A DNA stretch of 64,000 bases from an uncultured Candidatus Binatia bacterium (GCA_965242525.1 OZ251459.1:2137515-2201514), one strand, 5' to 3'. Numbered from the stretch's first letter, positions 19,187-62,242 are shown. Translations and numbers: made by a program. The notes: a model not told the origin generated them from the sequence alone.

Positions 19187-19199
19187 GAGGAAACGGCGT

Positions 19200-25595: not shown

Positions 25596-25789
25596 GGAAC
25601 CTCTGGACAATCGGTACAGGCGACATGAGCGCGTCCTTCGACTCCGCTTCGCTACGCTCAGGACGAACGGGGATAGCTCCGCTTCGCTCAGGACGAACAG
25701 GGAGAGATCCTCTACGCTCAGGACGAACGGGGATAGGAGTGTCAGGGTGAGGGAATCCATCCTGGATGTCTCGATTCTTCACAGGCTCC
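25596..25789 (+). mobile_element. MITE-like element, copy 1 (194 nt), with ~23-bp terminal inverted repeats and three internal ~30-nt subrepeats
   Basis: Left TIR GGAACCTCTGGACAATCGGTACA (25596-25618) and right TIR TGTCTCGATTCTTCACAGGCTCC (25767-25789). CGCTCAGGACGAAC recurs at 25655, 25685 and 25715. Confidence 0.6.
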
Positions 25790-38416: not shown

Positions 38417-38573
38417 GAGCCGGTAACGACCGAGACATCCGGGATGGATCCCCTCCCCCTGGCCTTCCTGTCCCCGTTCGTCCTGACACTCCTATTCCCG
38501 TTCGTCCTGAGCGTAGCGAAGCGAAGTCGAAGGACGCGCTCATGCCCCCTGTCCCGATTGTCAAGAGGTTTCC
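38417..38573 (-). mobile_element. MITE-like element, copy 2 (157 nt, inverted orientation)
   Basis: It contains CCGTTCGTCCTGAGCGTAGCGAAGCGAAGTCGAAGGACGCG (the reverse complement of the copy-1 core) and ends in TGTCCCGATTGTCAAGAGGTTTCC. The left end ...CGACCGAGACA is a degenerate TIR. Confidence 0.6.
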
Positions 38574-42143: not shown

Positions 42144-42637
42144 GGAGTCCCTCCCTCGCCGCCGGCCTTCCGCCCCCGGGCCGCGGCCTCCACCGCTTCC
42201 ACCACCGGCAGGTATCCGGTGCAGCGGCACAGGTTGCCGATGATCCCCCGGCGTATCTCGTCCCGGGAGGGGTTCGGGTTCCGGGCGAGCAGCGCATGGG
42301 CGGACATGACCATGCCGGAAGTGCAGAAGCCGCACTGGAGCGCGTGGGCCTCCTGGAACGCGGCCTGCAGGGGATGGAGCCCGCCTTCCGCGGCAAGGCC
42401 CTCGATGGTGGTGAGCTCGCGCCCGTCCGCCTGCACCGCCAGGAAGGTGCAGGACTTGGCGCTCCTGCCGTCCATCACCACCGTGCACGAGCCGCAGTTG
42501 CTGGTGTCGCACCCGTAGCGCGTGCCCTTGAGGCCGATGACGTCCCGGACGTAGTCCACCAGCAGCATGCGCGGCTCGGCCTCGCCCTGGTGGAGCCTTC
42601 CGTTGACCGTGACCGAGATCTTCCGCCTAGCGGACAT
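42140..42637 (-). CDS. (2Fe-2S)-binding small subunit of the molybdoenzyme
   Basis: GCDTSNCGSCTV and ALQCGFCTSGM...GNLCRCTGY cluster motifs. ATGA overlap with the large subunit. Confidence 0.9.
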   Translation of the reverse strand: MSARRKISVTVNGRLHQGEAEPRMLLVDYVRDVIGLKGTRYGCDTSNCGSCTVVMDGRSAKSCTFLAVQADGRELTTIEGLAAEGGLHPLQAAFQEAHALQCGFCTSGMVMSAHALLARNPNPSRDEIRRGIIGNLCRCTGYLPVVEAVEAAARGRKAGGEGGTP

Positions 42638-43529
42638 GCCCTCCCTCCACCGTTTCGCCTCGATGGCGCCGCAGGGCCACGTCCACCGCCTTCCGGAACA
42701 ACGCGCCGCATACGGCCCGCTTGTAGTCGCTCGAACCGCGGACGTCGGCCAGGGGGCTCGCGGCGTCGCGGACCTGTTGGGCCGCGGCCTCCACCACGTC
42801 CGGGTCCATGCCCTGGCCCCGGAGGGTCTCCTCGGCCGCGGTCGCCCGGATGGGCGTGAGTCCGGCCGCGCCCAGGGCCACGCCGGCGTCCCGGCAGCGC
42901 CCGGACTCGTCCAGGCCGAGCTGGACCGCCACGCTGGCCACCGCGAAATCCCCGGCCCGACGCTCCAGCTTGAGGTAGGCGCCCGCGCTGCCGGCCGGCG
43001 GCAAAGGCGCCCGGACTTCCGTAATCAACTCGTCGTCGGCCAGGACCGTGGTGTAGGCATCCACGAAGAACTCCCCGGCGTCCACCACCCGGCTCCCGCG
43101 CGGTCCGACGCACACCACCTGCCCCCGCAGGGCCTGCACCACCGGACCCCAGTCCCCCGCGGGGTCTGCTTCGGCCAACGCCCCGCCCAGGGTCCCCCAA
43201 CCCCTCACCTGGGCGTCGCCGATGACTCCCGCGGCCTCGGCCATCAACCCCAGCTTCTCGCGGACCACGGGGGACGCGCCCACCTGCGCGTGCGTGGCCA
43301 GGGCGCCCACCAGCAGGAGGCCCGCGGCCTCGTCTTCCCGCACGTGCGCCAGCCCGGGAACCCGTCCGATGTCGATGACCCGGGTCGGCCGGACCAGCCG
43401 CAGCTTCATGAGCGGCACCAGGCTCTGCCCGCCGGACAGCAGCTTGGCCCCTTCTCCCGAACCCTGGAGCAGGTCGATGGCGTGTTCCACAGAATCGGCG
43501 ACGGCGTAGTCGAAGGAGGCGGGGTACAT
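42627..43529 (-). CDS. FAD-binding medium subunit of the molybdoenzyme (CoxM/CutM-like)
   Basis: FDYAVADSVEHAIDLL...KLLSGGQSLVPLMKLRL. Confidence 0.85.
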   Translation of the reverse strand: MYPASFDYAVADSVEHAIDLLQGSGEGAKLLSGGQSLVPLMKLRLVRPTRVIDIGRVPGLAHVREDEAAGLLLVGALATHAQVGASPVVREKLGLMAEAAGVIGDAQVRGWGTLGGALAEADPAGDWGPVVQALRGQVVCVGPRGSRVVDAGEFFVDAYTTVLADDELITEVRAPLPPAGSAGAYLKLERRAGDFAVASVAVQLGLDESGRCRDAGVALGAAGLTPIRATAAEETLRGQGMDPDVVEAAAQQVRDAASPLADVRGSSDYKRAVCGALFRKAVDVALRRHRGETVEGGHVR

Positions 43530-43752
43530 GGTGCGAGGACCTGACGTGAGAGACGCGACGTTGATAGCCCAACGCTACCCGTGAGTCAAACCAGGCAGGC
43601 GCAGGCCACGGAGAAAGACGCCTTCCATTGCGAACATGGTGACCGGCATCCTCCGTCCACCGGCTCGACCGGGACAGGAAGACGTGCTAAGCAGGAACCT
43701 GCGGTGGCGGGATGGACCGGGCGGGCCGTCATCGTGAGGAGGCCGAACATTC

Positions 43753-44022
43753 ATGGAAAACATGGAAGACAGAGAGCTATTGAAACGCATCGAATTGAAT
43801 CCAGGGGTGATGGGAGGGAAGGCCGTCATCAAGGGCACACGTTTGACGGTGGAACACATCCTCAACCTGCTCGCCCACGGCGAGACCGTTGAAAAGATCA
43901 CGGCGGAGTACGACGGAATCGCCCAAGAAGACGTTTTGGCCTGCGTCCTGTTTGCCGCGAAAGCCCTGGGGGACACCACCTTCGCACCGTTGGCTGCAGA
44001 GACGCCTGGATGCGGTTCCTGA
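43753..44022 (+). CDS. DUF433-family antitoxin-like protein
   Basis: IELNPGVMGGKAVIKGTRLTVEHILNLLAHGETVEKITAEYDGIAQEDVLACVLFA matches the DUF433 pattern as I remember it. Confidence 0.75.
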   Translation: MENMEDRELLKRIELNPGVMGGKAVIKGTRLTVEHILNLLAHGETVEKITAEYDGIAQEDVLACVLFAAKALGDTTFAPLAAETPGCGS

Positions 44023-44363
44023 TAGACGAATGCGTTGGCCCCACGGTAGCGCAGTGGTTGCGACAAGAAGGGCACGACGTATTCTCCGTCTTCGAGGAGG
44101 CGCGCGGCGCAACCGACGAAGAACTCGTTCGCAAAGCGCACCGGGAGAACCGAATTCTCCTGACGACCGACAAGGATTTTGGCGAGAAAGCATTCCGAGA
44201 ACGCAGGTCGCACAGGGGGATTGTCTTGCTGAGGCTGCAAGACGAACGCCCAATGAACCAAGTGAGGGTCATTCGGCGCCTCCTACAGCTTTACGAAAAT
44301 CAACTGCCGGATCGATTCTCGGTAGTCACGGAGGCTGGCGTTCGGTTCGCCATGAACATGTAG
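44010..44363 (+). CDS. DUF5615-family PIN-like (Mut7-C-like) toxin candidate
   Basis: MRFLIDECVG...ATDEELVRKAHRENRILLTTDKDFGE. It overlaps the DUF433 gene by 13 nt. Confidence 0.7.
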   Translation: MRFLIDECVGPTVAQWLRQEGHDVFSVFEEARGATDEELVRKAHRENRILLTTDKDFGEKAFRERRSHRGIVLLRLQDERPMNQVRVIRRLLQLYENQLPDRFSVVTEAGVRFAMNM

Positions 44364-44520
44364 CGAGGCGCGTCCGATCGGATTTGCCTGAGCCGTTGAC
44401 GGCGTGCCGGGGCCGAGCCGTCCCGCGCAACGCGGCGCCATCTCTTCGTACCCGCCCGGCGAGGCAGGGGTAGCCGCCGCTCACCGGCCGGCGGTCTCGC
44501 CGCCGGCCGGTGAAAACCTC

Positions 44521-45186
44521 ATGATCGACGTCCGGTCACTTTCCGTCACGGGGATGCAGTGGCGGGCGGGCCGACTGTGGCTTGCGTCCGCGGACGAGTC
44601 CCTGGTGGCAGCCTACGACCCCGCAAGCGGGTCGTGCGACGAGGTCCTTTCGTTTCCGGGGGTCCGGCACGCCTGCCCGTCCAACGAAGGCCTCTGGCTC
44701 ATCACCGCCGGCGGACGGCTGGGGCAACAGTTGCTCCTGTGGTCCCTCGAAACCAACCGGGTGACCCGGCGTTTCGACTGCCCTGACGGCGCCGCGTCCG
44801 GCGTCACCGTGCTGAACGACAAGCTGTGGCTGAGCCACCGGCGCAACCGCAAGCTGTTCTGCATGGACCCGCAGAGCGGCCGCCCACTGTGGACCATCCG
44901 CACCGAGAACCAGATCCTCAACCCCACTTCGCACCAGGGCGAGCTCTGGTTCGTCGAATGCGACCCCGGACCCTTGGGAGACTGGAGCGACGAGAGCCAG
45001 GCGGGGTACTCGTTCCTCCGTTACGACCCCGTGCGCGAACTGGCGGCGGAGCGTCTCCCCGTGCCCTTTCGCCCGACGTGCCTGGCTCTGGACGGGGAGC
45101 GTTTCTGGTACGCCGTGCAGGACGAGCCCGGCCTCCGTGTTCGGAGCCGGAGGGCGCTGCTTCCCCGCAGACGGATGCTCGACTGA
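44521..45186 (+). CDS. Hypothetical protein, beta-propeller-like repeats
   Basis: 221 aa from the ATG at 44521, with recurring L/GxLW(L/F) strands (GRLWLAS, EGLWLIT, DKLWLSH, GELWFVE, ERFWYAV). No family is assigned. Confidence 0.35.
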   Translation: MIDVRSLSVTGMQWRAGRLWLASADESLVAAYDPASGSCDEVLSFPGVRHACPSNEGLWLITAGGRLGQQLLLWSLETNRVTRRFDCPDGAASGVTVLNDKLWLSHRRNRKLFCMDPQSGRPLWTIRTENQILNPTSHQGELWFVECDPGPLGDWSDESQAGYSFLRYDPVRELAAERLPVPFRPTCLALDGERFWYAVQDEPGLRVRSRRALLPRRRMLD

Positions 45187-45396
45187 CCGTCCGGGGCTCC
45201 CGCCCAGTCAGGCACGACTGCGTGGGATGCTGTTGCTCAGCCGGCCTCCCTTGATGAGCCTCTTCCCCGCCAAGCACGGCTACATCCTTACCCTGGCCGC
45301 CACGTGGGCGGGAAGCATCGGAGGGCAGGGGATAGCTGCCAACGGACCGTCTCCTTGACACGACTCGAAATGTAAAGCAGGATTTCACAACCGAAA

Positions 45397-45450
45397 GGAA
45401 CCACTGAACAACGATCCTCGTTCATCCTGAGCGAAGGCGAAGGTCGCGCC
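45397..45450 (-). repeat. Degenerate fragment of the MITE-like family
   Basis: GGAACCACTGAACAACGATC (TIR-like) followed by CGTTCATCCTGAGCGAAGGCGAAGGTCGCG (a diverged core in inverted orientation). Confidence 0.4.
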
Positions 45451-45677
45451 TTTCCATAGGGAGAAGGAACTCAAGCCGAGTTGGATCAGACGGTCCAAAA
45501 GGCAACCAGAGATCTTGCCATGGTCACATCCACGATTACCCTAAGGGCAGACCACGCTGCCCGGCTTCGATCCGTTGCGACAGCTATCCATGGCCGACGG
45601 ACCTTACAGCTACCAGACCGACGCGGATTCCTGTGCACGGACCACCAGCAGACTGAACGCGCGAAGGAGGTCTTGTC

Positions 45678-47024
45678 GTGGACGCGAGAGAACTGATCTT
45701 GCAGGACGTACGCTGCTTCCAGGACGAACAGCGTGGCCGCTTGCGGCCCGTCACGCTGCTCGTGGGCGAGAACAGTACCGGCAAGACGACCTTCCTGGGC
45801 TGTTACAGGGTGTTGCATGGGATGTTTTCCAATCCAGGGATCGGCGAATTCCTGGATTTCAACGGAGAGCCTTTCGTCATGGGTTCGTTCCGCGACATCG
45901 TCCGGTCACGACGCGGCCCGAGCGGCCGTATCGACGAGTTCAAGATCGGGGTCCGAGTCGATCGATCGCCAGACGACGTCATGTCACCGTGTGAGCTGTC
46001 GGTTGCTTTTCGCGAGAAAGGCTCGGAACCGGTGGTCTCGTCCTTGCGTTTCCAGTTCGATTCCGATGCGTTCCTAGAGATGAGTTCAGATGAGGAAGGA
46101 ACCATCGTGCAGATTCCAGGCCTTACCGAGCACGCCAAGGGTGTTCCGCTTGTTCGCACGATGGCCATGTTGGACTTCGTGATCCGCGATCCCGATTTTT
46201 GGGGAATGCCCCCCGGATGGTCAAACTTGGAAACCAGCTTCGAGTATCTCCATGGCCTGTTCTTCCGCCGAGGAGCCGCAAAGAGAAAACACACCGAACT
46301 TCAATGGCCTTTCGACGACGAGCTCCCGCGTTTGCCCGACCTGATTCCGGTCGCACCGCTTCGTTCCAAGCCCAAACGTACCTACGATCCGATACGCGAG
46401 ACCGCTTCCCCGGAAGGGGAACATGTCCCGATGCTGATGATGAGGCTGGATCGCACGGACACGCCGCACTGGAAATCGCTGCACAACGACCTCGTGAAGT
46501 TCGGCCAGGGTTCCGGGCTATTCGCCGACATCAAGGTGAAACGCCACGGCAAGCAGATGAGCGACCCTTTTCAGTTGCAGGTCAAGGTACGATCCGGACC
46601 TCATTCGAACCTCATGGACGTCGGTTACGGCGTCAGCCAGAGCCTGCCGATTCTCGTGGATGTGCTGAAAGGGTCCAGCAGCGGACGCAAGTGCGAGTTC
46701 CTGCTCCAGCAGCCGGAGGTTCACCTGCACCCTCGAGGCCAGGCGGAACTCGCCAGTCTGTTCGTCCAAGCGTTCAAGCAGAGTGGAAACCGGTTCCTGA
46801 TCGAGACCCACAGCGACTACATCATCGACCGCGTGCGCATTTCGGTCCGAAAAGGGCTGCTGAAGCCCGACGACGTGTCCCTTCTCTACTTCGAACCCAA
46901 GAGCAACGCCGTCGAGATCCACAACATGACCCTGGACGAGCATGGAAACCTCCTTGGCGCGCCGAGGGGATACCGTGACTTCTTCCTGAAGGAAACCGAC
47001 AGACTGCTGGGGTTCACGGACTGA
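45678..47024 (+). CDS. ABC/OLD-type AAA ATPase (AAA_15/21-like with DUF3696-like C-terminus)
   Basis: Walker A LVGENSTGKTT, signature-like GYGVSQSLPIL, Walker B FLLQQPEVHLHP, and H-loop IETHSD. The GTG start at 45678 is preceded by GAAGGAGG. Confidence 0.75.
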   Translation: MDARELILQDVRCFQDEQRGRLRPVTLLVGENSTGKTTFLGCYRVLHGMFSNPGIGEFLDFNGEPFVMGSFRDIVRSRRGPSGRIDEFKIGVRVDRSPDDVMSPCELSVAFREKGSEPVVSSLRFQFDSDAFLEMSSDEEGTIVQIPGLTEHAKGVPLVRTMAMLDFVIRDPDFWGMPPGWSNLETSFEYLHGLFFRRGAAKRKHTELQWPFDDELPRLPDLIPVAPLRSKPKRTYDPIRETASPEGEHVPMLMMRLDRTDTPHWKSLHNDLVKFGQGSGLFADIKVKRHGKQMSDPFQLQVKVRSGPHSNLMDVGYGVSQSLPILVDVLKGSSSGRKCEFLLQQPEVHLHPRGQAELASLFVQAFKQSGNRFLIETHSDYIIDRVRISVRKGLLKPDDVSLLYFEPKSNAVEIHNMTLDEHGNLLGAPRGYRDFFLKETDRLLGFTD

Positions 47025-47036
47025 GGGCCACCGAAG

Positions 47037-47516
47037 ATGTGCATCATCGTGGACGCCAACAAGCTCGATGTCTTTCTCGCCGACCCGGCCGACGAGAATT
47101 CCAGGCCGATACGCAGGTGGCTAAGTCAGGGCGCGGGGAGCATCGTGTATTCGACGGAAGGCAAGTTTGCGCAGGAGATCCGAGGTCGAGCCAAGGCCAA
47201 GCTGGCCGATTACGTTCGAGCCGGCAGAGCGAAGCACGTCCCCGCGAGCCTGTTCGCCGACGAAGAACGCAAGCTGGAAACTCACGCAGACCTCCGCTCC
47301 GATGATCCGCACGTGCTCGCGTTGGCGAGAGCGACCGGTGTACGTCTCCTGTACACCGCAGACGGGAAACTCACGTCGGACTTCAAGAACAAGAACATCA
47401 TCGACCGGCCGAGGGGCAAGGTTTATTCCGGCGCAGGCAATGCCAATCTGCTGACCCCCTCGGCATGTGCGTCGTCATGGCCAAGGTCTGCTTCGAAATC
47501 ATGGCCGACTTCATAG
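47037..47516 (+). CDS. PIN-like domain protein (predicted nuclease partner of the ATPase)
   Basis: MCIIVDAN... and SDDPHVLALARATGVRLLYTADGKL resemble PIN acidic-residue motifs. It starts 12 nt after the ATPase stop. The assignment is tentative. Confidence 0.45.
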   Translation: MCIIVDANKLDVFLADPADENSRPIRRWLSQGAGSIVYSTEGKFAQEIRGRAKAKLADYVRAGRAKHVPASLFADEERKLETHADLRSDDPHVLALARATGVRLLYTADGKLTSDFKNKNIIDRPRGKVYSGAGNANLLTPSACASSWPRSASKSWPTS

Positions 47517-47586
47517 ACACCGGCATCGCCGGGAACCTGAAGCGTCCGGGATCCAGCAATTGAGGACAGGATCGAGAAATCCGGCA

Positions 47587-49347
47587 ATGCGGTTCAGCGA
47601 CGCGGACATCGAGCACCGGTTGCGCTTGGGCGAGGACAGCGCCTGGGAGTTCAAGCAGGTCGAGTTCGCCGGGAACCGTCCGAGCCGCCCGAGCCGGGAC
47701 GACTGGGCGGACGAGATCGCGGCGTTCGCCAATGCGCGCGGCGGCGTGTTGCTCTGCGGCGTCAGCGACGATGGACAGGCGCAGGACATGTCGCGGGAGC
47801 AGATGGCCGCACTGGATGCCTTGCTCGTGGAAGTCAGCACCGATTCCATCAAACCGCCGGTACGCGTCCAGACATGGCACAGGATGCTGCCGGAGGGCAG
47901 GCGGGTGCTGCTGCTCGAAGTCCCGGAGAGCGACTCGCAGCACGACAGCCCTGGCGGAAGCTACCTTCGAGTAGGCGCCTCGAAGCGCAGGATGACGAAC
48001 GACGAGCGATTGCGTCTGGCGCAGCGGCGGGGACAGGCGCGGTTCCGCTGGTTCGACGAACAGACCGTCCCGAATACGGGCTTCCGAACGCTGGACGAGT
48101 CCCTGTGGCGGCATCTGCTCAGCGCCGAGGGCGCGGCGAATCCCGAGGCGGCGCTTGAAAAACTGGCGCTCCTGGCGCCCGACGAGGCCGGGGTCATGCG
48201 GGCAACCGTGACCGGCGTGTTGCTGTGCACCCGGAACCCGGAGGAGCGGCTGCCCAACGTCGGCATTACGGCGACGCACTATCGGGGAAGGGACCGCGCC
48301 TCCGGCCAGATCGACGCACGCGAGATCGGCGGCCCGCTGGACCAGCAGGTTGCGGACGCGATGGTCTTCGTGGCGCGGAACATGCGGGTGGCGGCGCGCA
48401 AGGAGCCGGCCCGCGTGGACGTGCCGGAATACAGCGACCGTGCGCTGTTCGAAGCCCTGGTCAACGCAGTGGCGCATCGCGACTATTCCATGCGCGGCAG
48501 CCGCATCCGGCTTTCCATGTTCGAAGACCGCCTGGAGATCCAGTCGCCCGGCTCGCTGCCGAACAACCTGACGGTGGACAGCATGGCGACGCGGCAAGCC
48601 GCCCGCAACCAGACGTTGACCTCCGTGCTCGGGCGCATGCCGGTGGGAGGAATCCGGGGTTCCGAGGAAAGACGGTATTTCATGGAACGGCGCGGGGACG
48701 GCGTTCCGATCATCCTGCGCGAAACCCGGGGGCTTTGCGGGAGACCGCCCGAATACCGGGTGATCGACGACGCGGAAGTCTGCCTCGTCATTCCCGCGGC
48801 GCCGCAGGAGCCGAGCCCCGTCCGCGCCGTCGTCAGCGTGCAGTGCGCCGGGAAGCCGCTGGCGGATGTGGACGTGCTGGCGCTGTTTCCCAACGACACA
48901 TGGAAACGCGCCGCCACCGACGAACACGGAGAGGCGCGCCTGGAACTGCACTCCGGCCGTCTGCCGATGACGGTGTTCGCCGCGGCAACGGGTTTCTCCG
49001 CCCATGTCCGTCTCGACTGGCTGCCCGCGGAGGAGGGCCGTCTCCGTCTCGAACTGGATGCCTTGCCCGGCGGCGGCGCAGTCATCCTCACCGAGGACAC
49101 CGGCGCGCTCCCGGGGCTCAAGGGAACGTTGAATCCCGTCCGCGACGCCCTCGACCGCACCTGGCTGTACGCCTCCAACATCGCCGTCAACCAGGGCCAG
49201 CCCCAGCCCGTGCACTTCATTCCCGGCGAAGACCTGCGCCTCACGGACGCCGACGGAAACGAGGCGTGGGCGCGTATCGTCGCCGTCACCGGCAGGTCGT
49301 CGCTGGTGGAGTACCGCCCGGCGGCGAAGCAGGGTCAAGTGAAGTAG
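47587..49347 (+). CDS. Schlafen/AlbA_2 DNA-binding domain + HATPase_c_4-like protein with C-terminal beta-rich extension
   Basis: EDSAWEFKQVEF...IAAFANARGGVLLCGVSDDG (AlbA_2 pattern) and LFEALVNAVAHRDYSMRGSRIRLSMFEDRLEIQSPGSLP (HATPase_c_4 pattern). Start verified at ATG 47587. Confidence 0.65.
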   Translation: MRFSDADIEHRLRLGEDSAWEFKQVEFAGNRPSRPSRDDWADEIAAFANARGGVLLCGVSDDGQAQDMSREQMAALDALLVEVSTDSIKPPVRVQTWHRMLPEGRRVLLLEVPESDSQHDSPGGSYLRVGASKRRMTNDERLRLAQRRGQARFRWFDEQTVPNTGFRTLDESLWRHLLSAEGAANPEAALEKLALLAPDEAGVMRATVTGVLLCTRNPEERLPNVGITATHYRGRDRASGQIDAREIGGPLDQQVADAMVFVARNMRVAARKEPARVDVPEYSDRALFEALVNAVAHRDYSMRGSRIRLSMFEDRLEIQSPGSLPNNLTVDSMATRQAARNQTLTSVLGRMPVGGIRGSEERRYFMERRGDGVPIILRETRGLCGRPPEYRVIDDAEVCLVIPAAPQEPSPVRAVVSVQCAGKPLADVDVLALFPNDTWKRAATDEHGEARLELHSGRLPMTVFAAATGFSAHVRLDWLPAEEGRLRLELDALPGGGAVILTEDTGALPGLKGTLNPVRDALDRTWLYASNIAVNQGQPQPVHFIPGEDLRLTDADGNEAWARIVAVTGRSSLVEYRPAAKQGQVK

Positions 49348-49364
49348 AGGGGAGAGATTTCGCC

Positions 49365-49598
49365 ATGCTCACGTCCGCGATTACCTCGAAGGGCCGGACG
49401 ACGCTGCCCAAACCGGTTCGGGAGGCCCTTGGAGTGGGGGCCGGAAACCGTGTGCGCTACGTCATCCTCGACAACGAGGTTCGGGTTCTGCCCATGCGGC
49501 CCATCGGGCGGTTGTTCGGCGCACTGAAGCACGACGGCCCGCGGGTTACGGTGGAGGACATGGAACGCGCCATCACGGAAGGGGCGTGCGAGGAATGA
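49365..49598 (+). CDS. AbrB/SpoVT(MazE)-family antitoxin
   Basis: 77 aa. MLTSAITSKGRTTLPKPVREALGVGAGNRVRYVI is the swapped-hairpin motif. Its stop forms an ATGA junction with the next ATG at 49595-49598. Confidence 0.75.
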   Translation: MLTSAITSKGRTTLPKPVREALGVGAGNRVRYVILDNEVRVLPMRPIGRLFGALKHDGPRVTVEDMERAITEGACEE

Positions 49599-50926
49599 GC
49601 GCGTTGGACACCAACTCCGCAGCCAGTAGAAAACCGCCGGCTAGCTGGCTCTATCGTCCACTGTTTCCGGCTCATTGGGAGCGCAGGCCACTTTACTCCA
49701 TGGCGCAATGGGTCAACGGACTGGCCTATCGGAATATCGAGTTCAGTGCGGCGGGACGCCCGATTATCAAGATCGCAGAGATCAAGGGCGGCATCTCGGA
49801 TCAAACCAGGTTTACATATCAAAACTTCGACGAATCGGTACGCGTGCGTGCAGGCGACCTATTGTTTTCCTGGTCTGGACAGCCGGAAACTTCCATTGAT
49901 GCGTTCCGGTGGCGTGGTCCGGAAGGCTGGTTGAACCAACATATCTTTCGTGTCACTCCCGCCGCCGGAATCGATGCCACCTTCTTTTTCTATCTCTTGC
50001 GATACCTGAATGCTCATTTCGTTGCCATTGCACGGAACAAGCAGACGATAGGTCTCGGACACGTCACAAAGCACGACCTGGAAAATATCGAGGCGGCTCT
50101 ACCCGACCGCCAGGAGCAACGCGCCATCGCTCACATCCTGGGCACGCTGGACGACAAGATCGAGTTGAACCGGCGCATGAACGAGACGCTGGAGGCCATG
50201 GCGCGGGCGCTGTTCCAGTCATGGTTCGTCGATTTCGATCCCGTGCACGCCAAGATGGAAGGCCGTGATACCGGCCTCCCCAAGCCAATCTCCGACCTCT
50301 TCCCCGATCACCTCGTGGATTCCGAGCGTGGCGAGATCCCCGAGGGATGGAAAATCAAGTCCCTGAGAGAATGTTTCCGTCTTACGATGGGGCAATCACC
50401 CCCGGGCAACACCTACAATGACCGTAGCGACGGGTTGCCTTTCTTTCAGGGACGAACTGACTTCGGGTTTCGATTTCCCGAGAATCGGAAATTCTGCACT
50501 GCTCCAACGCGGGTCGCTCAACCTGGGGATACGCTTGTCAGTGTCAGAGCGCCCGTGGGAGACATCAACATGGCATGGGAAGAATGCTGCATTGGACGCG
50601 GCGTTGCCGCACTCCGGCACCAGTCGGGTTCAAGCTCGTTCACCTATTACTCGGCTTGGGCAGTACAGAACAAAATCAGAGAGTATGAGGACACGGGTAC
50701 GGTGTTCGGAGCCATCAATCGAAAACAATTTGAAGCACTCCAGACGCTGGAACCCTCACCGGATATTGTCAATGCGTTCGACGCCCAAGCTGGACCGGTA
50801 GATGTCCGCATCAGGAACAACGTAACCGAGTCCCGAATCCTTACGACCCTGAGAGAAATCTTGCTGCCCAAGTTGATCTCCGGCGAAACCCGCCTCCGAG
50901 ACGCCGCGGAGCAGGCGGATTTGTAG
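49595..50926 (+). CDS. hsdS: Type I restriction-modification specificity subunit (orphan), with vapC-like first codons
   Basis: Two target-recognition domains separated by the conserved spacer LPDRQEQRAIAHILGTLDDKIELNRRMNETLEAMARALFQSWFVDFDP, plus the distal conserved helix TTLREILLPKLISGE. The N-terminus MSALDTN resembles a PIN/VapC start. No hsdM or hsdR occurs in the window. Confidence 0.85.
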   Translation: MSALDTNSAASRKPPASWLYRPLFPAHWERRPLYSMAQWVNGLAYRNIEFSAAGRPIIKIAEIKGGISDQTRFTYQNFDESVRVRAGDLLFSWSGQPETSIDAFRWRGPEGWLNQHIFRVTPAAGIDATFFFYLLRYLNAHFVAIARNKQTIGLGHVTKHDLENIEAALPDRQEQRAIAHILGTLDDKIELNRRMNETLEAMARALFQSWFVDFDPVHAKMEGRDTGLPKPISDLFPDHLVDSERGEIPEGWKIKSLRECFRLTMGQSPPGNTYNDRSDGLPFFQGRTDFGFRFPENRKFCTAPTRVAQPGDTLVSVRAPVGDINMAWEECCIGRGVAALRHQSGSSSFTYYSAWAVQNKIREYEDTGTVFGAINRKQFEALQTLEPSPDIVNAFDAQAGPVDVRIRNNVTESRILTTLREILLPKLISGETRLRDAAEQADL

Positions 50927-51127
50927 GCCATCCCATGAAAAACCAATCGAAGTATTCCAGTTCCGAGACCATCGCCGAGACTTTTCGATATCTGGGACTT
51001 GACGATCCAAAACTGCGCAGTCGATTACGAGGGTTCTCCAAACCGGGGATATCGCCTCCTCGAGTCGAGAGACGCAGCAGCAAACTTGTCACTCGGAACA
51101 ACACCGCGCCAGATCAAGGAGACGATC

Positions 51128-51854
51128 ATGCCCAACTGGAATCAACTACTTGACGAGATTCGCGCCGCTGGCAGCATGTATGATGTGGTTCGCCGTCGGT
51201 ATCTGTCCAGGATCCATGAACTGACCGGTCGAAATGTGATAGTCTATTCCTCAGGTTGGCTTCAAAGAGGCAACTTGCCGGGCGTAGAGATCAACGATGA
51301 TGACAAGAACGGATTCATGACCGTCATTCATCAGATGAAGCGCGATATCGGCCTCGATCTTGTCTTGCACACCCCTGGCGGCGATGCGGCTGCCATCGAA
51401 TCCATCGTCGATTACCTGCGCTCCATGTTTCAAACAGACATACGGGCGCTCGTGCCACAGCTCGCCATGTCCGGCGGTACGATGATTGCATGCGCATGCA
51501 AGGAAATATTCATGGGAAAGCAGTCGAGTCTCGGTCCGATTGATCCTCAATTGGGAGGTATTCCAGCCCATGGCTTGGTGGAAGAGTTCAACCGCGCCAA
51601 ACTTGTCCATCGAACGATGCCGGGAGATGGGCCTGAAGGTCACCGAACTCGAAAAGAGTCAAGAGCTACAGGACGCGGTACTTTCATTGCACCATGCTTG
51701 CATGCTCACATTTACAGCTACTTCGGCCTTCAAGATCATCGAAAATCATAGGGGAATTGCATTCATCAAGATGGCACAGCCGGTCCTGGTCTCCGGGGCG
51801 CCGACCGGCAACCCGGAGCCAAGCAGGGCGCCACTGGAGCAACCGGAGAAGTGA
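51128..51854 (+). pseudogene. SDH-family (ClpP-fold, SppA-like) serine protease, disrupted by frameshift/internal deletion near 51600
   Basis: The N-part in one frame (VLHTPGGDAAAIESIV..., LAMSGGTMIACACKEIFMG, GPIDPQLGG) loses similarity after EEFNRAK. The C-part (LSIERCREMGLKVTELEKSQELQDAVLSLHHACMLTF) continues in another frame from ~51603. Confidence 0.55.
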
Positions 51855-51905
51855 TCGCCTTGGGGAATCGCAAAGCGGCGCTTCGGCAATCCCGGAGATG
51901 GTACA

Positions 51906-53147
51906 ATGATCCCGATGATCCCACAGCCCCATGAACCACCGCGCGTCCAGCGCTTGAAAGTCCGTAACTTCCGCGCCTTGCGGGAGGTCGAGATCAGGAA
52001 CCTGACGCCGATGACGGTGCTGCTCGGTCCCAATGGCAGCGGCAAGTCCACCGTGTTCGACGTGTTTGCGTTCCTCTCGGAGTGCTTCGCATCCGGACTT
52101 CGGCGCGCATGGGACCGTCGCGGCCGGGCCAGGGAGATCAGGACCCGCGACGCCGAAGGGCCGATGACGATCGAGCTTCAATACCGCGAGCAGCCGAAAC
52201 CGCCGCTCATCACCTACCACTTGGAAGTGGACGAGCACCGGGGCGCGCCGGTGGTCGTCCACGAATGGCTGCAATGGACGCGGGGCAGAGCAGGGAAGCC
52301 GTTCCGTTTCCTCGAATACCGGAACGGCTTGGGCAAAGCGACCAGCGGCGAGGCGCCCGATGCGGAAGACGAGAGGCGGGAGATCCCGCTCAAATCGCCT
52401 GATCTGCTGGCGGTCAACGCGCTTGGGCAGTTCCAGGAACACCCGCGCGTGGCGGCGCTTCGCGACTTCATCATGGGCTGGCACGTTTCGTACCTCTCCG
52501 CAGACAGTGCGCGCGGCCAACCCGAAGCGGGGCCGCAGGAACGGTTGACCACCACCGGCGACAACCTCGCCAACGTGGTCCAGTACCTGAGCGAGCAGCA
52601 TCCGGCGCGGCTCGACGCCGTCTTCGAGACGCTGCGCAGGCGCGTGCCTCGTATCGATCGCATGTGGACCGAGCTCATGCCGGACGGCCGGCTGTTGCTG
52701 CAAATCAAGGACGCCCCGTTCAGCCACCCGGTTCTGTCGCGCTTCGCCTCCGACGGCACACTGAAGATGCTGGCCTACCTGGTGCTGCTGCACGACCCGG
52801 AACCGCCGCCGTTCATCGGTATCGAGGAGCCGGAAAACTTCCTGCACCCGCGGTTGCTTCCCGAGTTGGCGGAGGAGTGCCGCGCGGCCTGCGAGCGCAC
52901 GCAGTTGATGGTCACTACCCACTCGCCGTTCTTCCTGAACGCGCTGAGACCCGAGGAAGTCCGCGTCCTGTGGCGCGACGAAGCGGGCCATACGCGGGTG
53001 CAGCGGGTCGCCGACCTGGACCGTGTCCGTGCTTTCGTGGATGAAGGCGCACTGCTCGGCGATCTGTGGATGGAAGGCCAGTTCGGCGTGGGCGATCCGT
53101 TGACCCGGCATGGAGCTCCGGCGCGCGGCAGCGGAGATCGTCGATGA
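51906..53147 (+). CDS. ABC/OLD-type AAA ATPase (AAA_15/21-like)
   Basis: [10 protein letters not shown], Walker [12 protein letters not shown], signature-like [11 protein letters not shown], Walker [15 protein letters not shown], and H-loop VTTHSP. Confidence 0.8.
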
Positions 53148-53761
53148 CGGCCGCGCGGCACCTGGAGTTCCTGGTCGAAGAACAGTCGATGGAGGCTTTT
53201 CTGCGAGGACTGCTACCGCGCCTGCTTCCCGAAGGCTGCACGTTCGAAATTCGTGTATTCCAAGGCAAACGCGATCTGATGCGACGACTCGATAGTCGTC
53301 TGCGCGGCTACAGACACTGGCTGTCCGATGAATACCGGCTCGTGGTGATGGTCGATTGCGACCGTGACGATTGCCGAACGCTCAAGGCGCGGCTCGAAGA
53401 TGCGGCAGCCGGTTCGGGACTGCACACTCGTTCGCGAGCCGAAGATGACCGCTGGCAGGTGCTCAACCGCATCGTGATCGAAGAACTGGAGGCGTGGTAT
53501 TTCGGCGATTGGGAAGCTGTGCGCAACGCCTTTCCCCGAGTGTCTTCCACAATCCCGAATAAACCGCGTTACGGGAAACCCGACGCGATCCCGGACACAT
53601 GGGAGGAATTCGGGCGCATACTGAAAAAGCACGGATACCACAGGGCCGGGCTGCGCAAGATCGAAGCCGCACGGCTCATCGCGCCGAAGATCAATCCGGC
53701 GCGCAACCGTTCGCCGAGCTTTGCGGCCTTTCGCGATGTCCTCGCCGAGGCGACCGCATGA
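53144..53761 (+). CDS. DUF4276-like (Toprim-related) protein, partner of the ATPase
   Basis: [23 protein letters not shown] and an acidic cluster [15 protein letters not shown] overlap with the ATPase stop at 53144-53147. The family is assigned from memory of its consensus. Confidence 0.65.
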
Positions 53762-53840
53762 GGCGCCTGCCGACCGGGAGCGGCGGCGCATAACGGGACG
53801 ACGGGCGGCGCGGCACAGGGACGGCGCAAGGACAGAATCG

Positions 53841-55439
53841 ATGACACAATCGGAAACGGGTTCGGACCCGCGCGCAGCGCGGCGGAAACTCCCCATCGGT
53901 ATCCAGACCTTCCGCGAGATCCGCGAAGACGGCTGCTACTACGTGGACAAGACCGCCTACGTCCAGCGGCTGGTGGACGAAGGCAAGCACTACTTCCTGT
54001 CGCGTCCGCGACGCTTCGGCAAGAGCCTCCTGGTGGACACCATCAAAGAGCTGTTCGAAGGCAACGAGCCGCTGTTTCGGGGTCTCGCCATCCACGACAG
54101 GTGGGACTGGTCCGCTCCTCGTCCCGTGCTGCGCTTCGACTTCGGGGACGGCGGCTATGACGAACCCGGCCTCGTGCACAAGGAGGCCGCGGCGCGCCTG
54201 GGCGCCCTGGAGCGGGGGTTCGCGGTCGCCCCCCACGACGACATCGCCCCGGCCCGTTTCCGGCACCTGTTGCAGACGCTGCACGAACGCACCGGCCGGC
54301 GGGCCGCGGTGCTGATCGACGAATACGACAAGCCGATCCTGGACGCGCTGAGGTCGCCGGAGACAGCCCGCGCCAACCGCGACTTTCTGCACGGGTTGTA
54401 CTCCGTCATCAAGTCCGCGGACGCACACGTCGAATTCACCCTGCTCACCGGGGTGAGCAAGTTCTCCAAGGTCAGCCTGTTCTCGGGCTTGAACAACCTC
54501 AAGGACATCACCCTGGACCCGCGCTACTCCGCCATCTGCGGCTACACCGAGGCGGACCTCGACACGGTGTTCGCCCCGGAGTTGCTGGGACTGGACCGGG
54601 GCGAGATCCGCCGCTGGTACAACGGCTACGGCTGGCTCGGCGACGAGAAGGTCTATAACCCCTTCGACATCCTCCTGCTCTTCGACACCCGACGGTTCAA
54701 GGCATGGTGGTTCGAGACCGGCACGCCGACGTTCCTCATCGACACGCTGCTGGAGCGGGGGGTCGGCTCGCTGGCCCTCGAGGACATGCTCGGCGACGAT
54801 GCCTTGCTGTCCGCCTTCGACGTGGGCGCCATCGCCACCGAGGCGCTGCTGTTCCAGACCGGCTACCTCACCATCCATGACGAACGGGACGTGGGCGGAG
54901 AGGCCGCTTACCGGCTGGGCTATCCCAACCGGGAGGTGCGCCAGAGCCTGAACCGGAGCCTGTTGAGCCGCCTCGCGGACGATCCATCCGGCCCGACAGG
55001 GCACCGCGTCCGGCTGTACGACCTGTTGCGGGACAACGATTTCGACGGCATGGAGGCGCTGCTCAGGGCATTCTTCGCCGGGATTCCGTACCAGTGGCAT
55101 ACGAAGAACGACATCGCCGACTACGAAGGCTACTACGCGAGCGTGTTCTACGCCCTGTTCGCGTCCGCGGGGCTGGACATGACGGTGGAAGACAGCAGCA
55201 GCCGCGGGCGGGTGGAACTCACGGTGCGCCTCGACGGCAGCGTGTACCTGTTCGAGTTCAAGGTGGTGGACCCGGCCCCCCCGGGGTCGTCGGCGCAGCA
55301 AAGCGCCGCGATGACCCAGTTGCGCGAGCGGGGCTATGCGGACAAGCACCGGAGTTCCGGCCGGCCGATCCACCTGATCGCAGTGGAGTTCAGCAAGGAG
55401 ACCCGCAACCTGGCCGTGTTCGAGGCAGCGCCGGCCTGA
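53841..55439 (+). CDS. AAA-ATPase_like (PF09820-type) + PD-(D/E)XK (PDDEXK_9-type) protein
   Basis: LPIGIQTFREIREDGCYYVDKTAYVQRLVDEGKHYFLSRPRRFGKSLL is the classic N-terminus of this family. The C-terminal GRVELTVRLDGSVYLFEFKV is nuclease-like. Confidence 0.8.
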   Translation: MTQSETGSDPRAARRKLPIGIQTFREIREDGCYYVDKTAYVQRLVDEGKHYFLSRPRRFGKSLLVDTIKELFEGNEPLFRGLAIHDRWDWSAPRPVLRFDFGDGGYDEPGLVHKEAAARLGALERGFAVAPHDDIAPARFRHLLQTLHERTGRRAAVLIDEYDKPILDALRSPETARANRDFLHGLYSVIKSADAHVEFTLLTGVSKFSKVSLFSGLNNLKDITLDPRYSAICGYTEADLDTVFAPELLGLDRGEIRRWYNGYGWLGDEKVYNPFDILLLFDTRRFKAWWFETGTPTFLIDTLLERGVGSLALEDMLGDDALLSAFDVGAIATEALLFQTGYLTIHDERDVGGEAAYRLGYPNREVRQSLNRSLLSRLADDPSGPTGHRVRLYDLLRDNDFDGMEALLRAFFAGIPYQWHTKNDIADYEGYYASVFYALFASAGLDMTVEDSSSRGRVELTVRLDGSVYLFEFKVVDPAPPGSSAQQSAAMTQLRERGYADKHRSSGRPIHLIAVEFSKETRNLAVFEAAPA

Positions 55440-55465
55440 AGCGCCCGGCCGTACGGCACGCAACG

Positions 55466-56431
55466 TCACCGCCGCCGCACGTGCGGGTCCAGGGCGTCGC
55501 GCAGGCCGTCGCCCATGTAGTTCACGCTCAGGACCGTGAGCGAGATGGCGAGACCCGGCCAGAGGACCCGGGCGGGGGTGATGCCGAGGAAGGGCACGCC
55601 ATCGTAGAGCAACCGGCCCCAGGTGGGGAAATCGGACGGGAAACCGAGGCCCAGGAAGCTCAGGGCGCTCTCGGTGATGATGGCATGGGCGATGCCGAGG
55701 GTGGCCGCCACCGTGATGGGGTTCAGGGCGTTGGGGAGGACGTGCTTCACGATGACGTGGTGCGGCCCCGCGCCCATGCCGCGGGCGGCGAGTACGAACT
55801 CCCGCTGCTTGACCGAGAGCACCTCCCCGCGAACGATGCGCGCGGTCTGCATCCAGCTCGTCATGCCGATGACCGCGACCACCAGGACGAATATCCCGAG
55901 CTCCGGTCCCAGGGCGGCGCGCAGCGGGTCCCGGAACAGCATGATGGCCACCAGCAGCAGCGGCAGCACCGGCAGGGCCAGGAACAGGTCGGTGAGCCGC
56001 ATGAGCGGACCGTCGAGCCTCCGGAAGAAGCCTGCGGTGACGCCGGCGAACGTCCCCAGTGTCAGTGACAGCACCATTGCGCCGACTCCCACCGCGAGCG
56101 AGACCCGCCCGCCCGCCAGCACCCGGGCCAACATGTCGCGGCCCAGGTTGTCCGTGCCCATGGGGTGGGCCAGCGACATGCCCCGGTTCCGGGCCGCGTA
56201 GTCGAGGTATTGCGGATCCACGCCGTGGACCGCGGACCCGAGCAGCACCGCCAACGCGACCACCGAGAACACCGCGGCGCCGGCCAGGGCGCCCTTGTGT
56301 CGCAGGAACTGGCGCCACACGTCCCGGGCCGGCGAGGGGCGCGCCGGCGCCGCGGCCGGTCTCCGGTCGAGCGAGGGGCCTCCCGATCCCGCGGCCGGTT
56401 CCCGGGCGGACTCCGGAACCCCGTCAGTCAT
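55466..56431 (-). CDS. ABC transporter permease (DppC/OppC-like)
   Basis: Multiple TM segments and a binding-protein-dependent transport motif region (ESALSFLGLGFPSDFPTWG). Confidence 0.85.
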   Translation of the reverse strand: MTDGVPESAREPAAGSGGPSLDRRPAAAPARPSPARDVWRQFLRHKGALAGAAVFSVVALAVLLGSAVHGVDPQYLDYAARNRGMSLAHPMGTDNLGRDMLARVLAGGRVSLAVGVGAMVLSLTLGTFAGVTAGFFRRLDGPLMRLTDLFLALPVLPLLLVAIMLFRDPLRAALGPELGIFVLVVAVIGMTSWMQTARIVRGEVLSVKQREFVLAARGMGAGPHHVIVKHVLPNALNPITVAATLGIAHAIITESALSFLGLGFPSDFPTWGRLLYDGVPFLGITPARVLWPGLAISLTVLSVNYMGDGLRDALDPHVRRR

Positions 56432-59342: not shown

Positions 59343-59413
59343 GCCCCCGCCCTCCGGGTCTCTTCCGGAACCTCCGGTCAATTCCGGCTCGACGTGTTTC
59401 TCCCTGTGAAAAA

Positions 59414-59475
59414 GCGCGTCCTTCGACTTCGCTACGCTACGCTCAGGACGAACGGGGCAATCGTTCGGGGTTTCC
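59414..59475 (+). repeat. Truncated copy of the MITE-like family (core + right TIR-like end)
   Basis: GCGCGTCCTTCGACTTCGCTACGCTACGCTCAGGACGAACGGGG followed by CAATCGTTCGGGGTTTCC. Confidence 0.5.
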
Positions 59476-59497
59476 TTCGGCAAGGCCCGGTCCGCGG

Positions 59498-60923: not shown

Positions 60924-61163
60924 GGAACCTCCGAACGATCGGGACAGGGGGCAAGGCTTCCTTCGACTTCGCCTCGCGTCCTTCGACTCCGCTTCGCTAC
61001 GCTCAGGACGAACGGAGATGGGAGTCCACGCTCAAGGCGAACGGGGATGGGAGCGCAACCCTTCCCAACCGACTCGTGCTGGTCACCCATGTTCAAGGCG
61101 AACGGGGATGGAGTGTCAGGGCGAGGGAGTCCATCCCGGATGCCTCGATCGTTCAGCGGTTCC
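60924..61163 (+). mobile_element. MITE-like element, copy 3 (240 nt)
   Basis: TIRs GGAACCTCCGAACGATCGGGACA (60924-60946) and TGCCTCGATCGTTCAGCGGTTCC (61141-61163), with an internal core plus diverged ..CAAGGCGAACGGGGATGG.. subrepeats. Confidence 0.6.
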
Positions 61164-61229: not shown

Positions 61230-61730
61230 ATGGCCCGGCGACACGCAGCCCTGATCCCGCTTTCACGCGACCATCACCAGGGGTTGACCCTGGCCTTGCG
61301 CTGCCGCAAGCACGCCCTCGGGCAGCTCAACCCCGGCGACGCCGCATCCCTGGAGGCATGCGCCGCGGAAGCCTCCCGTTTCTTCGGCGAGAGCCTGACG
61401 CCCCACTTCGAGGCCGAAGAGAAGGTCCTGTTCCCGCTGATGGCGGAATACCGGGAGAGCCGGGAGCTCGTGGCCGAGCTCCGGGGCGAGCACCGGGAGT
61501 TCCACCGTCTGCTGGCGCGGGCCGGGGATCCCCGCGGGCTGCGGAAGTTCCTGTTCGACTTCGGCGACCTGCTGGAGCGGCACATACGGAGCGAAGAGCG
61601 CGGCCTCTTCCCCGCCTTCGAGAGGCTCGTGCCGCAGGAGGAAGCCGACCGGGCCGGCCGGGAGTTGCGGCAAACCCTGGAAGGGAGCCGTGGGGCGTCC
61701 CGAGACCCCGAACTGCCGGAGTCGTCATGA
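61230..61730 (+). CDS. Hemerythrin-like (HHE cation-binding) domain protein
   Basis: 166 aa with H...E and H...E spacing in LTPHFEAEEKVLFPL, LRGEHREFHRLL and LLERHIRSEERGLFP. Confidence 0.65.
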   Translation: MARRHAALIPLSRDHHQGLTLALRCRKHALGQLNPGDAASLEACAAEASRFFGESLTPHFEAEEKVLFPLMAEYRESRELVAELRGEHREFHRLLARAGDPRGLRKFLFDFGDLLERHIRSEERGLFPAFERLVPQEEADRAGRELRQTLEGSRGASRDPELPESS

Positions 61731-61749
61731 CGAAACCCCGAACGGCCCT

Positions 61750-61793
61750 CCCCGTTCGTCCTGAGCGCAGCCGAAGCCGAGTCGAAGGACGCG
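61750..61793 (-). repeat. Isolated core of the MITE-like family (inverted orientation)
   Basis: CCCCGTTCGTCCTGAGCGCAGCCGAAGCCGAGTCGAAGGACGCG. Confidence 0.5.
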
Positions 61794-61804
61794 TAGCGTA
61801 GTAT

Positions 61805-61901
61805 CCTGTAACAGTGTCCAAGTCACTGGCATGGAGTATCTTGTCATGCACGGAAAACATGTCTTGCGCCGCATCCCCGCTGACAGAGCGAATGTTACAG
61901 G
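61805..61901. repeat. 97-nt element E1 bounded by 9-bp inverted repeats CCTGTAACA / TGTTACAGG
   Basis: Read directly. It is homologous to E2 (shared blocks AGTCACTGGC, TCATGCAC, AACATG, ATCCC, GTTACAGGGTAG). Confidence 0.55.
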
Positions 61902-61904
61902 GTA

Positions 61905-62045
61905 GAAACCTCTGAACAATCGGGACAGAGAGCATGGGCGCGTCCTTCGACTTCGCTTCGCTACGCTCAGGACGAACGGGAATAGGGGCGTCAGGGTGAG
62001 GGAATCGGGAATCCATCCTGGATGTCTCGATTGTTCAGAGGTTTC
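61905..62045 (+). mobile_element. MITE-like element, copy 4 (141 nt; best-preserved TIRs)
   Basis: GAAACCTCTGAACAATCGGGACA (61905-61927) versus TGTCTCGATTGTTCAGAGGTTTC (62023-62045): 22 of 23 positions are complementary. It has a single core subrepeat. Confidence 0.7.
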
Positions 62046-62055
62046 GGTAGTAGTT

Positions 62056-62154
62056 CCCTGTAACAGCGACCGAGTCACTGGCGTGGAACATTCCATCATG
62101 CACCGCGAACATGGCTCGCGCTGTATCCCTGATGATAGAGTAACTGTTACAGGG
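62056..62154. repeat. 99-nt element E2 bounded by perfect 11-bp inverted repeats CCCTGTAACAG / CTGTTACAGGG
   Basis: Read directly. It is a second copy of the E1 family in the same orientation. Confidence 0.55.
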
Positions 62155-62163
62155 TAGTAGTTT

Positions 62164-62205
62164 CCCGTTCGTCCTGAGCGAAGCGAAGCGAAGTCGAAGG
62201 ACGCG
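62164..62205 (-). repeat. Isolated core of the MITE-like family (inverted orientation)
   Basis: CCCGTTCGTCCTGAGCGAAGCGAAGCGAAGTCGAAGGACGCG. Confidence 0.5.
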
Positions 62206-62242
62206 CTTTCCCAAGGGAGAGCCGGCATTGAACGGACGTTCC

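Follow-up and report, generated by a model that had tools for sequence, protein, structure and literature searches.

A probable conflict-gene hotspot with two variable sites, and its ATPase-PIN gene pair, in the chromosome of an uncultured Candidatus Binatia bacterium

The interval 43530-55465 of a 64,000-nt stretch of DNA from an uncultured Candidatus Binatia bacterium (GCA_965242525.1, OZ251459.1:2137515-2201514; this whole stretch is called the window below) is very probably a chromosomal hotspot of conflict genes, in which two variable sites flank a conserved gene for a small beta-propeller-like protein. Toxin-antitoxin, restriction and candidate abortive-infection genes would be collected at site Y, on the coxM side of the propeller gene, and at site X, on its oppC side, and their turnover among strains would proceed by precise deletions, by cassette replacement beside the specificity gene hsdS and by recombination of the target-recognition domains (TRDs) of hsdS, rather than by the site-specific integration of one element. 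The gene content of the interval, its variability among relatives and its decay are observed directly, and the label "defence" is given to it from the families to which its genes belong. As an island it is of an ordinary, known kind; it contains, however, a self-contained two-gene module of an NsnB-like ABC ATPase and a stand-alone PIN protein, to which a large part of the analysis was devoted.

Boundaries, gene content and composition

The interval, of about 12 kb, is bounded by two minus-strand metabolic operons, and all the substantial coding-looking open reading frames (ORFs) within it lie on the plus strand (Table 1). An earlier reading of the same DNA from sequence alone (the sequence-only reading) had placed a mosaic defence island between a coxMSL-like operon and an ABC-importer operon, and these bounds proved exact, at 43529 and 55466. 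The families were assigned by profile searches against Pfam, PADLOC (v2) and NCBIfam, in which the assignments of that reading were recovered at the same places by Pfam and PADLOC: the DUF433/DUF5615 toxin-antitoxin pair, with both Pfam matches significant and the genes overlapping; the ABC-type ATPase with a PIN-like partner, the former by its NsnB, AAA_15 and AAA_21 matches and the latter by its VapC fold and acidic residues; the Schlafen/AlbA_2 protein; the AbrB antitoxin; the orphan hsdS gene; the decayed SDH protease; the second ATPase with a DUF4276-like partner, which is the PADLOC candidate HEC-01, with both profiles matched; and the AAA plus PD-(D/E)XK protein. The gene remnants that had been noticed correspond to the SDH pseudogene and to a 57-nt AbrB relic.

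Table 1. Features of the interval, its borders, related loci and the rest of the window (coordinates are those of the window unless a locus is named; GC3, guanine plus cytosine content at third codon positions)
Feature	Coordinates	Strand	Evidence or remark
coxM-like FAD-binding subunit gene	42627-43529	minus	start at 43529 is the left boundary
DUF433 protein, putative type II antitoxin	43753-44022	+	Pfam DUF433, E 5e-21; GC3 0.70, z = -10 vs core
DUF5615/PIN_10/Mut7-C-like protein, putative toxin	44010-44363	+	Pfam, E 4e-25
Small beta-propeller-like protein	44521-45186	+	PQQ_2, 28.2 bits vs cut-off 27.6 (marginal); GC3 0.865
Non-coding debris	45430-45562		degenerate REP-like repeat copy (45430-45478) and AbrB 5'-end relic (45508-45562)
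NsnB-like ABC ATPase with DUF3696-like C-terminal tail	45678-47024	+	Pfam AAA_15/AAA_21; PADLOC NsnB, 2.3e-43
Stand-alone VapC-fold PIN protein, 159 aa, single domain	47037-47516	+	acidic residues conserved; fold matches VapC
Schlafen/AlbA_2 + HATPase_c_4 protein, unassigned C-terminal extension of ~150 aa	47587-49347	+	Pfam SLFN_AlbA_2 and HATPase_c_4, E 5e-17 and 3e-18
AbrB/MazE-fold small protein, orphan antitoxin or regulator	49365-49598	+	MazE_antitoxin, 2e-7; TIGR01439 (AbrB), 2e-6
Full-length hsdS, two TRDs	49700-50926	+	PADLOC Specificity_I, 5e-76
SDH-type (ClpP-like, S49) serine protease pseudogene	51128-51854	+	SDH_protease profile positions 75-178 of 286 only
HEC-01A, ABC ATPase	51906-53147	+	PADLOC HEC-01A, 7e-160, full length; AAA_21, 3e-29
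HEC-01B, DUF4276 (TOPRIM-like)	53144-53761	+	PADLOC HEC-01B, 7.5e-83; DUF4276, 3e-31
AAA-ATPase_like (PF09820) + PDDEXK_9 (PF08011) protein	53841-55439	+	Pfam, 1.3e-60 and 7.7e-19
OppC-like permease gene	55466-56431	minus	stop at 55466 is the right boundary
Site Y cargo of the ~80% relatives	L005 13859-16651; L010 13280-15062; L013 11637-14432		KGGVGR-motif ParA-like P-loop/TPR protein, PDC-M28B 3e-34
REP-like repeat copies	25628-25760, 38497-38540, 59367-59483, 60975-61015, 61749-61793, 61938-61982, 62164-62242		degenerate copy at 45430-45478
Second atypical block	12000-19200		ParB_N-like protein, 147-aa ORF, SNF2 helicase, 347-aa ORF, radical-SAM-like 546-aa protein, HATPase_c_3 (MORC-like) protein

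The guanine plus cytosine (GC) content of the whole window is about 69%, with values of 0.68-0.74 in the flanks and uneven values of 0.54-0.69 in the island. At third codon positions the 22 core genes of the window reach 0.929 ± 0.022 and the AAA-PDDEXK gene 0.90, near the host value, with 0.69-0.74 for the toxin-antitoxin pair, the ATPase and the PIN gene, 0.66 for hsdS and 0.61 for the SDH gene; windowed GC and GC3 thus agree with the unevenness, and with the low values of hsdS and the protease, that had been estimated by eye. Neither an integrase nor a tRNA gene had been visible to the sequence-only reading, and the searches were likewise negative for tRNA and Rfam families in the whole window, for flanking repeats at 43530-55465 and for an integrase in the interval, where every unassigned gap is of 500 nt or less.

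Conserved flanks and variable cargo

The relatives of the locus were found by scanning genome contigs with the OppC-like protein, after searches for exact matches to the proteins of the two flanking genes had yielded none. The closest of them are metagenome-assembled genomes (MAGs) of uncultured Candidatus Binatia, including locus L001 (OZ241979.1), whose flanks are 92-96% identical at the protein level, and other OppC matches came from MAGs of Entotheonella, Thalassobaculaceae and Granulosicoccaceae; as these companions are taken as sponge-symbiont lineages, a sponge-associated community appears likely. In eight Binatia loci the oppB-oppC and coxM-S-L flanks are preserved and collinear, with differing cargo between them, and the loci with about 80% flank identity (L005, L006, L009, L010, L012, L013, L016) retain the flanks and none of the cargo of the window. 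No cargo is present at site X in L012 and L013 (~55-100 nt); one TPR gene occupies it in L005, L006, L009, L010 and L016, and in the window it extends over 10.3 kb. In L001, site Y measures 357 nt and contains a REP-like repeat, and in the window it carries the DUF433-DUF5615 pair; in the ~80% relatives it is occupied by a ParA-like/TPR protein with a PDC-M28B match and an MqsA-type antitoxin pair, comprising in L005, L010 and L013 an MqsA-like zinc-ribbon helix-turn-helix antitoxin and a 118-aa partner. The presence of these other conflict genes at site Y in other lineages indicates that the same hotspot recruits different conflict genes. The island is, as its description by the sequence-only reading implied, not a part of the conserved core genome, given the ~80% relatives that do not carry its cargo and the empty site of L012 and L013.

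The propeller gene is kept at the same position, with 70-85% amino acid identity, in L001, L005, L006, L009, L010, L012, L013 and L016 (tblastn). Because it is present in every Binatia relative compared, it is regarded as a resident gene and not as cargo, and its residence inside the interval means that there are two adjacent variable sites and not one island. Thus, the beta-propeller-like ORF of the sequence-only reading was confirmed in its place, on a marginal PQQ_2 match, but not as a member of the island. The gene is 87-89% identical in nucleotides to its counterparts in the strain-level relatives, compared with 95-97% for the flanking cox and opp genes, and so its divergence keeps pace with that of the island cargo. 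Conserved flanks, variable cargo, an empty site and at least two defence-type systems, by which a hotspot is operationally defined, are all found here.

Turnover of the cargo among strains

The strain-level relatives are contigs of the PANK22-1 metagenome, from one sample series, with flanks 94-98% identical in nucleotides. The locus L092 (98%) has the same gene order as far as AbrB, of which codons 1-21 continue in frame into an hsdS gene that carries another TRD1. L081 (96-97%) is without exactly 44024-44372, which holds the DUF5615 toxin, and 50916-53820, which holds the SDH remnant and HEC-01; as a result of the latter deletion hsdS there abuts the AAA-PDDEXK gene, of 532 aa, which is not found in L001 or L086-88. 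In L086-88 (~92-95%), hsdS with a different TRD1 is followed by an intact SDH protease of 318 aa and then by oppC, and 52018-55453 is missing, with the first ~110 nt of HEC-01A retained. L001 (~92-95%) has the ATPase, the Schlafen gene, AbrB and the 5' end of hsdS in common with the window; a 313-bp deletion removes its PIN gene, and the genes PDC-M02A (DUF4365, 8e-52) and PDC-M02B (1e-119) replace 49995-55454 of the window. The DUF433 gene is present in L081 and L092 and not in L001 or L086, and the Schlafen gene, kept in L001, L081 and L092, is truncated in L086. In L001, which is the nearest of the relatives with a complete genome, the PADLOC candidate PDC-M02 (11021-12645), a DUF4365 protein with a 374-aa partner, adjoins a half-length hsdS.

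The nucleotide identity of the island backbone and propeller genes is 84-90%, below that of the flanks (92-97%), which indicates that these genes diverge or recombine faster than their surroundings. An origin of 50916-53820 as an insertion of HEC-01 was considered and rejected, since L086 keeps ~110 nt of HEC-01A past its intact SDH gene; this retained 5' end points instead to a deletion of 52018-55453 in the history of the L086 haplotype. In the comparison with L081, a search for a target-site duplication at the ends of 50916-53820 gave only short and imperfect microhomology. Judging from the sequence comparisons, the window is best explained as the fullest version of the locus, of which the relatives would represent different deletions or replacements. 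Accordingly, of the repeated insertion and decay proposed by the sequence-only reading, decay, deletion and replacement were seen, but insertions were not documented and are suggested by the compositional mosaic alone. The island offers a well-resolved case of the turnover of defence cargo among near-identical strains of an uncultured lineage, without mobility genes: deletions can be placed to the base pair, cassettes have been exchanged next to hsdS, and a common TRD2 is combined with three different TRD1 alleles.

The ATPase-PIN module

The first ATPase of the interval covers positions 4-343 of the 345 of the PADLOC NsnB model and also matches the PADLOC candidate PDC-M55A (4e-38); its DUF3696 score, 20.8 bits, is below the Pfam cut-off of 22. 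The Walker A GENSTGKT, the GYG signature, the Walker B "LLQQPE" and the H-loop ETHSD are invariant in 30 ATPase homologues. The PIN gene starts 12 nt past the ATPase stop, and its product combines the PIN fold with the four conserved acidic residues; D6, E47, D90, D109 and D115 are invariant in an alignment of 32 sequences. No significant Pfam match was obtained for the PIN protein (the best, PF01850 PIN, had an E of 0.09, below the cut-off), nor any match in PADLOC (E <= 1) or NCBIfam, and none of 10 members of its family matched the PADLOC models. Its assignment as a PDC-M55 or HEC-03 partner was rejected with this result of 0/10, and a literature search for PDC-M55 found nothing.

The pairing of the two genes is obligate, as they are adjacent in all nine genomic contexts, with a spacing of 0-13 nt, including one pair whose ATPase is just 37% identical; in several of these contexts the pair stands alone amid metabolic genes. 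The PIN family includes at least 418 clusters at 90% identity and, at 50% identity, 1,757 clusters (E <= 1e-3) or 1,228 (E <= 1e-10), and no matches to it were found in 72,556 plasmids, 50,697 phages and IMG/VR. The pair is thus widespread in uncultured, GC-rich environmental bacteria (~1,200-1,750 clusters at 50% identity), and it exposes a gap in the profile sets of the defence finders for such organisms. An AbrB-like gene upstream of the ATPase was considered as a third gene of the module and dismissed, because it is frameshifted and confined to loci of the window lineage and therefore a relic.

It is quite conceivable, though short of probable, that the pair is an independent, uncatalogued two-gene abortive-infection system, related to Menshen as a sensor-less, minimal or ancestral form whose nuclease would be the clamped PIN protein itself. 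Its anti-phage function, the ATPase-nuclease complex and the trigger are inferred by analogy. In the mechanism proposed for both ATPase pairs of the interval, on the model of Septu, PARIS, Menshen and HEC-03, the nuclease would be kept silent by an oligomer of the ABC ATPase; in the first pair this nuclease is the PIN protein, restrained by way of the DUF3696 tail, and in HEC-01 it is the TOPRIM protein. The ATPase would sense a phage component, upon which the nuclease would be released or activated, and the freed nuclease would cut RNA (PIN) or DNA (TOPRIM), so that the infection would be aborted.

Other cargo genes

In HEC-01 the start of HEC-01B overlaps the HEC-01A stop (ATGA), the Walker motifs of HEC-01A are intact, and an E...DxD motif of the TOPRIM type can be read in the HEC-01B translation. 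The DUF433 and DUF5615 genes of site Y, both small and each with its domain, overlap by 13 nt. In the PADLOC searches the Schlafen protein matches only the Schlafen-containing parts of the pAgo/Aga models; neither this protein nor the AAA-PDDEXK protein is an established defence gene. No cognate toxin gene lies downstream of AbrB.

The residues 30-442 of the hsdS product span positions 3-402 of the 403 of the Specificity_I profile. Its TRD1 occurs in three alleles (window and L081; L086 and L088; L092), and its TRD2 is common to all; three TRD1 alleles on a shared TRD2 at 94-98% strain identity suggest that the diversification of hsdS continues, possibly in company with hsdM and hsdR genes situated elsewhere in the genome. 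The only methylase fragment found, at 19200-20786, is of the N6_N4 type, and the set of hsdS, hsdM and hsdR that makes up a type I restriction-modification system is incomplete among the scanned ORFs of the window. The hsdS products of L086 (6213-7811) and L088 (1968-3566) bear an N-terminal nucleotidyltransferase-like (MNT/MTPAP-like) extension of ~110 aa. The SDH gene, compared with its intact homologue (P0121, 318 aa, 98% identical), has a 230-bp internal deletion and a frameshift at 51600/51601, the gap corresponding to 8473 to 8704 of L086 (blastn); on account of this gap relative to L086-88 it is a pseudogene.

The AbrB relic is 82% identical over 57 nt to 49353-49409 (blastn) and is present also in L081, whereas L001 and L086 have just 133 nt in its place. 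A segment of ~60 nt from the start of the AbrB gene is found again both in this relic 5' of the ATPase (45508-45562 vs 49353-49409) and at the fusion breakpoint of L092 (10788-10850), and this 5' segment appears to be a recurrent recombination junction that brackets the ATPase-PIN-Schlafen block.

Alternative explanations

Several observations weigh against the reading of the interval as a hotspot of working conflict genes. In the sole published test (bioRxiv 10.1101/2024.01.29.577857), the HEC-01 representative failed to protect against any of the phages, and the Schlafen, AbrB and AAA-PDDEXK proteins received no PADLOC system assignment. In the NsnB-like ATPase, QQ replaces the D-E dyad of Walker B, so that ATP hydrolysis may be impaired or non-canonical; its AlphaFold2 (AF2) model is poor (pLDDT, the predicted local distance difference test, of 57), and the Foldseek matches of this model, all of them to ABC ATPases, therefore confirm the ABC class only. 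No hsdM of the N6_Mtase type and no hsdR was found in the profile-scanned ORFs, which comprise those of the island, the flanks and the low-GC 10-21 kb block, most other ORFs of the window being unscanned. The direction of the events, insertion here or deletion elsewhere, was judged from pairwise comparisons.

A possible but rather unlikely origin for the right half of the interval, from AbrB to the AAA-PDDEXK gene, is a wrecked type I restriction-modification operon that is without its hsdM and hsdR genes and in which HEC-01 and PDC-M02 were once embedded cassettes; such an origin is compatible with the hotspot explanation and would refine it. The HEC and PDC families are defined by their embedding in Hma, BREX, DISARM and type I restriction-modification systems, and two cassettes of this embedded type, HEC-01 and PDC-M02, lie directly past hsdS in different strains, so that a type I locus that has decayed or been dispersed is a reasonable source for this half; the full length of hsdS, with the allelic replacement of TRD1 between strains, speaks for it as well. 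However, neither hsdM and hsdR nor any fragment of them was found in the island or in the loci of the relatives, and the ongoing exchange of TRD1 suggests that hsdS may still be used with partners elsewhere. Less probable, and indeed doubtful, is the view that the cargo is made up of selfish addiction modules and of passengers in decay, gathered in a permissive space between two operons and of no defensive benefit to the host. The SDH pseudogene, the AbrB relic and the losses of the toxin in L081 and of PIN in L001 are in accordance with it, as are the negative outcome for HEC-01 and the presence of a toxin-antitoxin pair and an orphan antitoxin, but the catalytic and nucleotide-binding residues of the ATPase-PIN pair are invariant over many 50%-identity clusters, its architecture matches the validated HEC-03 and Menshen, and the diversity of TRD1 at 96-98% genomic identity suggests diversifying selection on hsdS.

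It is scarcely credible that one integrated mobile element, such as a genomic island, an integrative and conjugative element or a prophage remnant, makes up the entire interval, even though the orientation of the genes, against that of both flanking operons, and the lower GC content would fit it: integrase, tRNA and direct repeat are missing, a conserved host gene lies within, the relatives differ at many internal breakpoints and not at two common ends, the plasmid, phage and IMG/VR collections contain no PIN family members, and the composition is a mosaic and not uniform. The hotspot with two variable sites is the preferred explanation of the interval.

Other features of the window

A family of REP-like intergenic repeats, with a core of ~45 nt that includes CGCTCAGGACGAACGGGG, is scattered over the window, and its copies occur also in L001, L086 and L087, among them copies within site Y of L001 and L086, which is empty apart from the repeat. 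The degenerate copy at 45430-45478 matches the copies at 59385-59433 and 62187-62220 (blastn), and the low-GC stretch 61500-62400 (0.565) overlaps several others. The folding of the repeat gave no structure above shuffled controls, and a scan for promoters and terminators stayed at or below the shuffle expectation. The block 12000-19200, with ~50% GC vs 69%, is far more atypical than the island and has the look of a second island for defence or DNA modification, perhaps a more unusual one; its SNF2 helicase matches the PADLOC models ZorD (2e-47) and DpdE (5e-37), and its neighbours (10369-11961 and 19200-20786) are an AAA_22 ATPase and the N6_N4 methylase fragment.

Comparison with known systems

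The interval resembles the known defence hotspots in its mixture of candidate systems and toxin-antitoxin pairs, its remnants and its atypical composition, and differs from them in having no mobility genes, in being split by a conserved gene and in changing mostly by deletions and replacements. Its HEC-01 pair shows no structural difference from the catalogued system, as each of the two proteins aligns with its model from end to end, the two genes overlap and the motifs are preserved; HEC-01 is related to the AbiL, PARIS, Gabija and OLD architectures.

For the ATPase-PIN module the closest parallels are less complete. Unlike in VapBC, no VapB-type antitoxin adjoins the PIN gene, and an ABC ATPase of ~450 aa lies upstream instead. 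HEC-03, a pair of an ABC ATPase and a PIN protein, protects E. coli against phage, with both genes needed (bioRxiv 10.1101/2024.01.29.577857). The two-gene architecture is the same, an ATPase gene adjoining a PIN gene, and so, presumably, is the logic by which the ATPase regulates a VapC-like PIN effector; the sequence family is another one, as the ATPase matches the HEC-03 model only at residues 260-430 (the C-terminal 170; 7.5e-23), so that the gene adjacency of HEC-03 is present here and the profile match of both proteins is not.

For Menshen, a clamp of NsnB on the inactive PIN domain of NsnC, by way of DUF3696, has been predicted (PMC12065111). The module shares with it the full-length NsnB match, the GxG in place of the ABC signature, the non-canonical Walker B and the DUF3696-like tail, and its downstream partner has the PIN fold, the predicted target of the NsnB clamp. 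However, an NsnA (ParB-DUF262 + ParBDB) gene is present in none of the nine contexts: just the AbrB relic and the propeller gene lie 5' of the ATPase, and no DUF262 gene was found at the window locus or at L081, L082-85, L086, L090, L091, L092 and L093. The survey of Menshen was seeded from NsnA homologues (PMC12065111), which places pairs without NsnA outside its reach. NsnC is an inactive PIN domain fused to a C-terminal nuclease, in contrast to the stand-alone PIN protein of 145-160 aa found here, in which D-E-D-D is kept; thus, among NsnA, NsnB and NsnC, it is NsnB alone, with a sub-threshold DUF3696, that has a counterpart in the module. The module would thereby connect the NsnB-PIN clamping of Menshen with the validated ATPase and PIN pair of HEC-03, as a simpler system of two genes whose regulated nuclease may be the PIN domain itself.

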